Origin: Pseudomonadota bacterium
GTDB lineage: Bacteria > Pseudomonadota > Alphaproteobacteria > Rickettsiales > UBA1997
Assembly (NCBI GenBank): GCA_018970485.1
Contig: JAGWWH010000001.1
Location: forward strand, 79,951-143,950
Reading direction: 5' to 3'
Length of the DNA: 64,000 nucleotides
Positions 42,903 to 44,839 of the stretch are shown piece by piece (position 1 is the stretch's first letter; every line of letters starts with the position of its first letter). The position numbers and the translations under genes were made by a program. The notes beneath the pieces were generated by a model. It searched no databases. It was not told where the DNA came from and saw nothing but the letters and a program-made list of their open reading frames with translations.

Positions 42903-44771
42903 CTAGCTCAGCAGATTCTTCAGAACTTCAATCGCTTGCGCAATTCCCTCTTTATTCGCGCCACCGCCCATCGCTAAATCTTTTTTTCCGCCGCCGCCTT
43001 TTCCACCGACCGCTTCAACAACGGGCGCGATTAATTTTGCCGCATCAAATTGCAGATTAGCGCTTACAGCCACGGAGACCGCAACCTTCCCATCCTTAAA
43101 TCCAAAAAGTGCAAAAACACAAGAATCTTGGAATTCTTTTTTTGACTTAACGTCGCTCAAAATTTCGCGTACATCTTTCGCTTCTGCATTTTCAAAAAGA
43201 TGAGAAACCAAAGTTACGTCACCGATTTTTTCAGCTTTCAGATTGTCCAAATTGGCGAGAAGAGCTTGTTTTTTCAGACGCTCGATTTCCTTGTCTTTTT
43301 TCTTCAAAATTTCTTCGAGGATTTTTGCATCACCTTCGTCAGCGTGTGAATTATCTGGCTTTGCGCCACCTAAATCAAAAATTTCCTGATTCTTTTTGTT
43401 AATTTTTTCGTAGAGTTCAGAAATAAAATTCTGCGATTTTTCGGCTTGTTGGGCTAAATATTTTTTTACTTCATCACCACTTCTAGCCTCGATTCTTCTA
43501 ATCCCAGAGGCCACAGACTTTTCAGAAATAATTTTAAAAACTTCAATTTCTGAAGTGTTTTTCACGTGAGTTCCGCCGCATAATTCAACCGAAGATCCCA
43601 TTTTTACGACACGAACTTCTGCATCATATTTCTCACCAAACAAGGCTTCTGCTCCACTGTCGCGAGCTGCTTCTAGAGCCATTAAATTGGTATTTACTTC
43701 CGACTTATTTGCGATCCAACCATTCACCAATTCTTCAACTTTTTTGATTTCTTCCGCCGTCATTTGGCGATTAAAATTGAAGTCAAAAGTGAAATATTCG
43801 GCATCAACATTTGAGCCTTTTTGCGAGATCGAATTACCTAAAACTTCTTTCAAAGCCTTGTGCATCAAATGTGTCGCCGAGTGATTCGCTGCGCGGGCTG
43901 CACGAGTTGTTTGATTTACTTCAGCAGTAACCTCATCACCAACTTTTAGATCAATTTTCTGCTTGGCAAAAAAGTGAACAAATAAATTTCCGGCGAATTT
44001 TTTGGTCTCGAAAATTTCTACTCCAGCAATTTTTCCATCATCACCTTTTTGACCGCCGGAAGTAGCGTAGAATGGGGTTTTATCGAGAATTATCGCATCG
44101 TCTAAAATCGCCAAAACTGTCGCTTTTGCGCTCAAGTTTTCGTAACCCAAAAATTTTGTTTCACCGTATTTTTCTTTGAGATCAAAAAAGATTTTTTCCT
44201 CTTTTTCTTCGCCTGAACCAACCCAATTTTTTCTTGCGCGTTCACGCTGCAATTCCATCTCGCGATTGAATTCTTCGACATCAACTTCGAGATTTTTTTC
44301 CTTCAAAATATCTTGCGTGAGATCAAGCGGGAAGCCGTAAGTATCGTAGAGTTTGAAGGCAGTAGCTCCGGAGAATTTCGGCGTCACCCTGAGCTTGTCG
44401 AAGGGTGATTTTTCTTGCCCAGAATCATGCTTCGACAAGCTCGGCATGACTTTGATTTCCTCTTCCAAAATTTTTAAACCCTTCTCCAAAGTTTCGCGGA
44501 ATTTCTCTTCTTCGTTTTTTAGTGTTTCGACGATCGTATCACGAGCCCGCCCCAGCTCTGGATAGGCAACACCCATTTCGTTAATTAGCGCTTCAACAAG
44601 TTTGTACATCGAAACTTCTTTCGCGCCGAGTTTGTGCAATTGGCGCATGGCACGACGCATGATACGACGCAGAACATAACCACGTCCTTCGTTGCTTGGC
44701 ATCACACCGTCGGCGATTAAAAAAGATGAAGAACGTAGATGATCAGCGATGATTTTGAATTCTGCTTTCAT
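42903..44771 (-). CDS. alaS: alanine--tRNA ligase fragment lacking the N-terminal class II catalytic core (tRNA-recognition, editing and C-Ala domains present)
   Basis: 622 aa. It begins at [41 protein letters not shown], which aligns to about residue 260-300 of full-length AlaRS. Editing motifs HSATHLMH and CGGTHV and the C-terminal [16 protein letters not shown] are intact. The in-frame upstream sequence is repeat/RNase J 3' sequence, not AlaRS. Confidence 0.85.
   Translation of the reverse strand: [622 protein letters not shown]
44383..44450. repeat. palindromic element family A, inserted in frame in alaS
   Basis: gtcaccctgagcttgtcgaagggtgatttttcttgcccagaatcatgcttcgacaagctcggcatgac. Encodes [23 protein letters not shown] between conserved LEEE and [12 protein letters not shown]. 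Confidence 0.9.
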
Positions 44772-44791
44772 GCTCGGAAGTAAGTTGCCAA

Positions 44792-44839
44792 CTCCTCTTA
44801 GATCCGCGCCTTCGCGGGGATGGTGGGATGAGAGAGGAG
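44792..44839. repeat. hairpin containing a family B fragment, between the RNase J stop and the truncated alaS start
   Basis: ctcctcttagatccgcgccttcgcggggatggtgggatgagagaggag. Outer arms are ctcctct/agaggag, inner arms ccgcg/cgcgg. Confidence 0.6.

Follow-up and report, generated by a model that had tools for sequence, protein, structure and literature searches.

Alanyl-tRNA synthetase is very probably encoded by two separate genes in a broad clade of Rickettsiales-like alphaproteobacteria

In the window studied here, by which we mean the whole stretch of 64,000 nucleotides (64 kb) taken from contig JAGWWH010000001.1 (positions 79,951 to 143,950) of the Pseudomonadota assembly GCA_018970485.1, the gene for alanyl-tRNA synthetase (AlaRS) lies on the reverse strand directly downstream of rnj, the gene of RNase J, and encodes a protein of 622 amino acids (aa) which starts only at about residue 277 of the Escherichia coli enzyme. 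An earlier note on this DNA, made from the letters alone, had pointed to the missing catalytic core and had offered a split gene, a free-standing editing protein, a pseudogene and a misassembly as possible reasons. We conclude with high confidence that this gene, hereafter alaS-beta, is one of two genes which together encode AlaRS, and that the two-gene form is a fixed trait of a broad alphaproteobacterial clade, Rickettsiales-like and recovered from freshwater, groundwater and soil. The features of the locus, with the evidence for each, are the following.

44840..46582, reverse strand: rnj (RNase J), retained upstream of alaS-beta in relatives and probably in one operon with it (Pfam; gene order in relatives)
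44772..44839, reverse strand: spacer between rnj and alaS-beta, 68 nt, mostly a palindromic element with arms at 44790-44841 (sequence)
42903..44771, reverse strand: alaS-beta, very probably the C-terminal subunit of a split AlaRS, 622 aa (PF01411, tRNA_SAD, DHHA1, TIGR00344)
44229..44771, reverse strand: tRNA-recognition (Mid) domain, residues 1-181 (residues 5-181 align to 3HXU 280-437)
44383..44450, reverse strand: in-frame palindromic (REP/RPE-like) element inside alaS-beta, residues 108-130, 68 nt (28-nt arms, 12-nt loop)
43488..44132, reverse strand: beta-barrel and editing domain, residues 214-428 (tRNA_SAD at residues 386-428; AlaXM-like match at 214-428; motif conservation)
within 43488..44132, reverse strand: zinc/editing motifs NHSATH (residues 296-301) and CGGTHV (residues 398-403) (motif conservation)
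42909..43208, reverse strand: C-Ala / DHHA1 domain with GGKGGGG, residues 522-621 (Pfam and motif conservation)

The extent of the protein was established by comparison with domain models and structures. Residues 2-287 match positions 269-550 of the 552 positions of the Pfam profile tRNA-synt_2c (PF01411) and are followed by tRNA_SAD and DHHA1, and the NCBIfam model TIGR00344 (alaS) is covered over positions 269-847 of 847 only, with a score of 492 which nevertheless exceeds the equivalog cut-off of 457. A structure-database alignment pairs residue 280 of the E. coli AlaRS chain 3HXU with residue 5 of the window protein, while an approximate E. coli sequence used as the query places K6 at residue 282; in the A. 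fulgidus AlaRS structure it is residue 340 that pairs with residue 8. Since the two E. coli alignments put residues 5 and 6 at 280 and 282, Met1 corresponds to about residue 277, which falls within the range of 260-300 given by the earlier note. The class II catalytic core, namely motifs 1-3 and the alanine/ATP pocket, which that note had found wanting with the N-terminal ~260 residues, is indeed absent from the window protein and, as judged by Pfam and tblastn, from the whole 64 kb, where a tblastn search with E. coli AlaRS residues 1-316 matched residues 282-316 only. We also read the sequence upstream in the same way as it had been read there: the first in-frame stop lies 41 codons 5' of the start, and the stretch between reads through the palindromic element into the 3' end of the RNase J gene.

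The four AlaRS domains are not united on this polypeptide; the tRNA-recognition, editing (HxxxH, CxxxH) and C-Ala (DHHA1, GGxGGG) features of a bacterial alanine--tRNA ligase are all present, so that the earlier description of the retained 622 aa as intact holds, and they are conserved in the clade. Both residues which read the G3:U70 base pair are kept, i.e. N27 (E. coli Asn303) in PSNEGRG and D143 (E. coli Asp400) in YDTYGFP, and they are invariant in 17 clade sequences within two motifs that are essentially invariant as well. LFGEKY is among the motif stretches identical in 17 of the 17 aligned sequences, and the other functional motifs vary in at most three. The roles of Asn303 and Asp400 in G3:U70 recognition have been described before (PMC10036535, PMC11392972).

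The truncated form is shared by a large number of relatives. In a search of 5.8 billion proteins, the best 120 homologues of alaS-beta, at 60-90% identity, are all 564-673 aa long, and the ten of them that were read begin where the window protein begins, give or take a few residues, with a few shorter or upstream-extended gene calls. The form is thus kept in at least 120 protein clusters, and it persists down to 45% identity: an exhaustive HMMER search of 50%-identity representatives returned more proteins consisting of the C-half only, at 45-58% identity and in varied gene contexts. The closest fused AlaRSs are ~46-47% identical to the window protein. In 21 clade loci a Met stands 1-5 residues ahead of K(A/P)E(F/L/Y)KIIADH, with in-frame stops further upstream, and the ratio of nonsynonymous to synonymous substitution rates (dN/dS) between the C-half and its relatives is 0.09-0.15 in pairwise comparison.

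The junction in front of the gene is equally well documented. Logan contigs from three sequencing runs that contain the window (X1-X3) span it with zero differences (e.g. X1 record 4, which corresponds to 44391-45616), and the same junction of rnj and the C-half is found in independent assemblies of many projects. RNase J lies directly 5' of the C-half in 20 of the 22 related loci, with spacers of 1-170 nt, and this adjacency is seen also for the more distant C-halves P0089, P0137 and P0096; the order aminotransferase-coaX-rnj-alaS(C) is retained to 58% identity. The comparison of synteny that the earlier note had called for therefore indicates an old junction. A consensus scan of the 68-nt spacer of the window found no promoter-like or terminator-like site in it, and for this reason, together with the spacers of 1-3 nt in relatives, alaS-beta is probably co-transcribed with rnj. 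As for the palindrome at the junction, it is restricted to the window and to L001, L002 and L018, the closest three of its relatives, which makes 4 of 23 clade junctions (the 22 related loci plus the window), whereas the junctions of the other clade members have no palindrome and spacers as short as 1-3 nt. Because the repeat is confined to these four, the split would long predate it, and the palindrome is best read as a late, lineage-specific insertion into an existing junction and not as the cause of the split, contrary to the repeat-mediated rearrangement that had been suggested. The C-half is neither a pseudogene, nor an assembly chimera, nor a recent rearrangement.

The missing half was found as a gene family of its own. 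Its first true member (P0370, locus L041) surfaced when the N-terminal part of P0148, a fused relative, was searched against proteins; the other matches were almost all ordinary alphaproteobacterial alaS fragments. It is an open reading frame (ORF) of 262 aa with a natural TAA stop, which begins 1 nt after class-I lysS; the non-coding DNA behind it extends for at least 148 nt and ends in a palindrome of the same type as that in the window spacer (L041 1558-1584). The best 120 homologues of P0370, at 74-89% identity, are 240-294 aa long, nearly all of them 253-294 and mostly 260-264; all match PF01411 only, and many are located on long contigs of up to 884 kb. In addition, we scanned metagenome contigs by DNA pattern for the N-half-specific peptide QFKNYFTG and obtained 24 further complete N-halves with natural stops and no C part downstream, besides 8 more that run off the end of their contig; the same scan also returned fused alaS genes from other phyla, which serve as internal controls.

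All members of this family, hereafter alaS-alpha, end in alignment opposite E. coli G272, give or take a few residues. Class II motifs 1-3 are invariant in them, and so are R69, W170, N212, D235 and G237 (E. coli numbering), which we take to be catalytic residues of the E. coli AlaRS active site. Identities within the family are 68-93%, and dN/dS is 0.04-0.08. Of the 552 positions of PF01411 the N-half matches 1-258 and the C-half 269-550, and of the 847 positions of TIGR00344 the N-half matches 1-247 and the C-half 269-847; by these alignments the two families are exactly complementary, with nothing lost or duplicated but ~4 residues of a variable linker. By itself the N-half scores under the cut-off of TIGR00344. 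No full-length AlaRS stands among the best 120 relatives of either half. In the protein search, the choice of candidates seems to favour targets of query-like length, since a query of 267 aa gave only proteins of at most 467 aa though full-length AlaRSs must match equally well; it is this preference which seems to have let the first N-half surface. The gene typically sits in a synthetase cluster in the order trpS (divergent), alaS-alpha, variable insert, class-I lysS (L041, L045, L046, L047, L092, L137, L166, L169). The gap between lysS and alaS-alpha is 1 nt in L041 and L045, and elsewhere there is a variable insert, e.g. an ankyrin-repeat gene.

For relatives of the window organism, N- and C-subunit genes can be assigned to the same genome. 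The N-half locus L137 lies on a contig of 278,689 bp, and the longest contig with the C-half P0096 has exactly the same length; likewise the N-half locus L169 and the longest contig with the C-half P0030 share a length of 183,182 bp, which suggests that both halves lie on one contig in these two cases. The C-half of the genome locus L005 is 100% identical to P0030, and the same set of nine runs, from five studies, contains both L005 (C-half) and L169 (N-half), with the shares of their sequence words present in a run rising and falling together (e.g. 1.00/1.00, 0.90/0.68, 0.72/0.52, 0.34/0.36 and 0.16/0.16). Their depths (N/C) of 11.7/10.9, 22.7/21.4, 7.3-7.8/10.1 and ~3/3 are near 1:1 in three of four runs. 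For the genome of the window itself the evidence is indirect: in the runs that contain the window there are also contigs that match an N-half gene at ~82% identity over 450-570 nt, a value within the range of the family, and their depth is 4.6-5.6 against 3.6-6.4 for the window. This is supportive, though not conclusive, of an N-half gene of its own in the window organism.

The two genes are not neighbours. With the E. coli N-terminus as the query, tblastn on 31 genome loci detected no N-half closer than 10 kb to a C-half, and none was near in the gene neighbourhoods of the diverse C-halves P0089, P0141, P0143, P0151 and P0137; since neither half shows in the locus of the other, they are more than 10 kb apart. 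Neither the NCBI accession nor the ENA sample gave a pairing of halves, and an ORF of 262 aa overlapping the C-half in L039, taken up as a possible N-half, was rejected as an unrelated low-complexity protein. A shorter distance may apply in the marine lineage of the C-half P0141: the fourth gene downstream of its alaS-beta (L032 6684-7307) shares 63-65% identity with the gene that immediately precedes alaS-alpha in L125 and L057, and by this resemblance the halves may there be only ~5 kb apart, beta followed by alpha. Two further loci share genes with the window. In L092, pepA-aroA, the pair present at the left end of the window, lies ~10 kb from an N-half, with synteny ending after aroA; in L166, a helicase gene 77% identical to window 40099-41901 stands 7.5 kb from an N-half, and the contig stops there.

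Taken together, the split alaS with its catalytic half elsewhere, one of the proposals of the earlier note, has become the reading that we strongly favour, in view of a complementary N-half family that belongs to the same lineage and co-occurs with the C-half. The beta subunit has ~600-620 aa from about E. coli residue 277; the alpha subunit has 260-264 aa, extends to about residue 272 and is encoded by a separate gene, typically between trpS and class-I lysS. Each half-gene has its own start and stop codon, and neither an intein nor any sign of RNA joining is seen. We infer that alpha and beta would reassemble non-covalently over the native interface of the catalytic and Mid1 parts into an (alpha-beta)n enzyme. 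In such an enzyme alanyl-adenylate would be made by alpha. Beta, with both G3:U70 readers, would place the acceptor stem and carry out the proofreading, and its C-Ala domain would contact the tRNA elbow and join the complex into a dimer.

Several points weigh against this reading. The alpha gene of the window genome itself was not retrieved and is absent from the 64 kb, and the N-half-like reads in the runs that contain the window stem from a soil metagenome, with the end of the gene not visible. The residence of both halves on one contig is deduced from identical lengths and from co-occurrence in runs, and the look-up of the C-half P0096 gave a different contig of 249 kb. Subunit assembly and enzymatic activity are deduced from sequence, and reassembly in trans is shown only for Nanoarchaeum, whose enzyme is cut elsewhere. 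Moreover, a passage of PMC11392972 cites E. coli fragments shorter than 1-461 as not charging tRNA alone, so that activity would depend on reassembly in trans.

One of the other explanations is that the 622-aa protein is a free-standing trans-editing and tRNA-binding factor, a kind of oversized AlaX, in an organism with an ordinary full-length AlaRS. The editing domain and C-Ala are intact, residues 214-428 match the AlaXM model, and a full-length gene could have escaped us in genomes that were not scanned as a whole. We nevertheless consider it improbable, as the earlier suggestion of such a protein has to face a whole tRNA-recognition domain, including the counterparts of Asn303 and Asp400, which is under strong constraint here and is lacking in AlaX; a score of the alaS type, 492 against a cut-off of 457, compared with 113.6 bits against a cut-off of 300 for AlaXM; an N-half family with an exactly complementary boundary co-occurring at matching depth; and the lack of a full-length protein among the best 120 relatives of either half. 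Very unlikely, too, is a joining of the two halves into one AlaRS polypeptide at the RNA or protein level, by RNA trans-splicing or a split intein. The halves are encoded far apart, and Nanoarchaeum joins some other split proteins by split inteins; however, the N-half stops 12-25 residues past motif 3, which leaves no room for an N-intein of ~100 aa, the C-half begins right at the Mid1 helix with no C-intein, and neither half has extra terminal sequence or an intein domain in Pfam, whose scan of both halves gave AlaRS domains only. RNA trans-splicing is opposed by the conserved start and stop codons of each gene and by upstream spacers down to 1-3 nt, which have no room for half of an intron.

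A decaying remnant of alaS, left by a recent palindrome-mediated rearrangement, is suggested by the palindrome which fills most of the spacer between rnj and the C-half, and by the second element inside the gene. To this the data leave hardly any chance: the ORF is intact with conserved functional motifs and dN/dS of 0.09-0.15, where relaxed selection, frameshifts or stops and a sporadic distribution would be looked for in a pseudogene or decaying duplicate; the same start point recurs clade-wide, in no fewer than 120 clusters and in proteins with as little as 45% identity; the junction repeat is found in only 4 of 23 clade junctions, other spacers being 1-3 nt; and the internal element is in frame at an alignment gap, consistent with a loop. 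The misassembly that the earlier note wanted excluded, i.e. a chimeric junction in place of a contiguous full-length alaS in the real genome, draws on the metagenome origin of the window and on the repeats close to the junction. It is just as close to negligible, because contigs of three runs cross the junction without difference and the same junction recurs in 20 of the 22 related loci and in independent assemblies of many projects.

If the two-gene reading is right, a further and more tentative step, which we regard as possible but rather doubtful, is that the lineage would run translation with a two-subunit AlaRS whose catalytic core by itself lacks any element for tRNA recognition, and that the placement of alpha with trpS/lysS and of beta with rnj, in separate operons, would allow the cell to adjust the ratio of alpha to beta. 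Were this true, excess beta could serve as a free trans-editing factor, or limiting beta could relax G3:U70 specificity, and the clade would offer a natural experiment in modular synthetase assembly and in the 'operational RNA code'.

Some other proteins and loci came up in the course of the survey. The locus P0144 (L038 3426-6879) was considered as a permuted, long or split-fused alaS and was rejected: its frames for the N part (262 aa) and the C part (907 aa) overlap, and the latter runs into an aminotransferase gene. It is most likely an indel or frameshift artefact, on a contig (ctg96416_4x_l) with '4x' in its name, and a caution against counting splits from gene calls alone. P0196, P0225, P0235, P0237, P0253 and P0259 are AlaRSs of ~605-640 aa from unrelated lineages which start a few residues before the RxxADH helix; P0196, the only one of them that was read, is rich in alanine and arginine. 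They may represent further splits that arose independently at this boundary, or else gene calls with a frameshift.

The in-frame palindromic element inside alaS-beta is part of a net insertion of 19 aa, an alignment gap relative to 3HXU in the tRNA-recognition domain, which is consistent with a loop position. It has no counterpart in relatives at 86-90% identity (P0001, P0003); other copies lie at ~13.8, 24.3, 28.8 and 48.7 kb of the window, and the read depth over it is 16-28 compared with ~6 in the flanks, that is, 3-4 times higher. It resembles the Rickettsia palindromic elements, which insert into coding genes. A second palindromic family, with the core CATCCCCGCG.AGGCG.GGATC, occupies intergenic spacers of the window at 44790-44841, 12531-12612 and 14025-14059. 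The use of such repeats as markers of the lineage was dropped, as palindromic elements of this kind are widespread across bacteria.

As regards the host, the window carries genes of rvh-type type IV secretion (virB3 and a large VirB6-like protein), cbb3 oxidase and complex I, relatives have a class-I lysyl-tRNA synthetase, and source records across the clade are labelled Rickettsiales, Rickettsiaceae, Pelagibacterales or Alphaproteobacteria bacterium. The virB3 gene (48684-49118) and the gene of the VirB6/TrbL-like protein (1308 aa, 51015-54941) flank aspS and a tRNA-Leu(UAA) gene (50902-50989); the ORFs of virB3 and aspS overlap by ~60 nt, on account of which the start codon of one or the other has probably been called too early. 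On the forward strand, an ORF of 1975 aa without Pfam match (32923-38850) lies directly 5' of purE (38866-39339); in the relative L045, the place upstream of purE is taken by lysS, alaS-alpha, a gene similar to Fe-ADH and lapA. Also on the forward strand, the ORF at 40099-41901 carries the sequence motifs of a DEAD-box helicase and ends in ~200 aa enriched in R, S, D and G, and several long ORFs antisense to it are probably spurious.

There is a practical side to the two families as well. Few of the listed C-halves and only two of the listed N-halves carry a protein record or name in NCBI nr; one N-half is named 'hypothetical protein', and ordinary alaS fragments are named 'alanine--tRNA ligase-related protein' or 'partial'. 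Marker-gene sets that include alaS (TIGR00344) may misjudge the completeness of genomes of this clade.

In comparison with known systems, the single-chain bacterial AlaRS (TIGR00344; E. coli AlaS, 3HXU) is the nearest in content, since the two halves together tile its model and keep all functional motifs, but in the clade studied here the chain is broken in a variable linker at E. coli 272/277 and its parts lie in different operons. The AlaX proteins (AlaX-S/M/L) also present the AlaRS editing fold in a stand-alone protein, and AlaXM as well as PDB 2E1B match residues 214-428; unlike them, the window protein has a full tRNA-recognition domain, scores as alaS while staying far below the AlaXM cut-off, and is paired with a catalytic subunit. 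Division of a synthetase over several chains is familiar from other enzymes, since in the LeuRS alpha/beta of Aquifex, the GlyRS alpha2beta2 and the PheRS alpha2beta2 the catalytic and tRNA-binding parts are on separate chains that assemble non-covalently; these are heteromeric or split as alpha and beta are here, though different enzymes.

As to AlaRS itself, it has been described as the sole synthetase with one 'prototype' four-domain structure throughout biology, the split enzyme of Nanoarchaeum being the exception (PMC10036535, PMC8887476). The mini-AlaRS of Tupanvirus and the mitochondrial AlaRS of C. elegans likewise depart from the prototype (PMC10036535, PMC8887476), but there domains are lost, whereas here they are only divided over two genes. 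In the literature searched, we found no bacterial AlaRS split of this kind, and Nanoarchaeota had the only split AlaRS. In Nanoarchaeum equitans, AlaRS-alpha (NEQ547) corresponds to E. coli 1-368 and is cut inside the tRNA-recognition domain, with AlaRS-beta encoded by NEQ211 (PMC11392972); alpha and beta together are strongly active and specific for G3:U70, while alpha alone is weak and non-specific (PMC11392972, PMC10036535). The two systems are alike in having two separate, distant genes and no intein, with the class II core in the N-subunit and editing and C-Ala in the C-subunit. They differ in that the present one is bacterial and is cut at 272/277, ~95 residues earlier and at a domain boundary, so that alpha has no tRNA-recognition domain and both G3:U70 readers are on beta. 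Furthermore, the present sequences are of the bacterial alaS type (TIGR00344) and not of the archaeal one (TIGR03683), from which an origin independent of the split in Nanoarchaeota follows. On this evidence, the gene pair would be the first bacterial, clade-wide two-gene AlaRS to be found, and the second independent split of the enzyme, at a new cut site. Such a split implies that the catalytic/Mid1 interface can be held non-covalently in vivo, and it would provide a natural system for studying how the activation of alanine, the recognition of G3:U70 and editing work together in trans.

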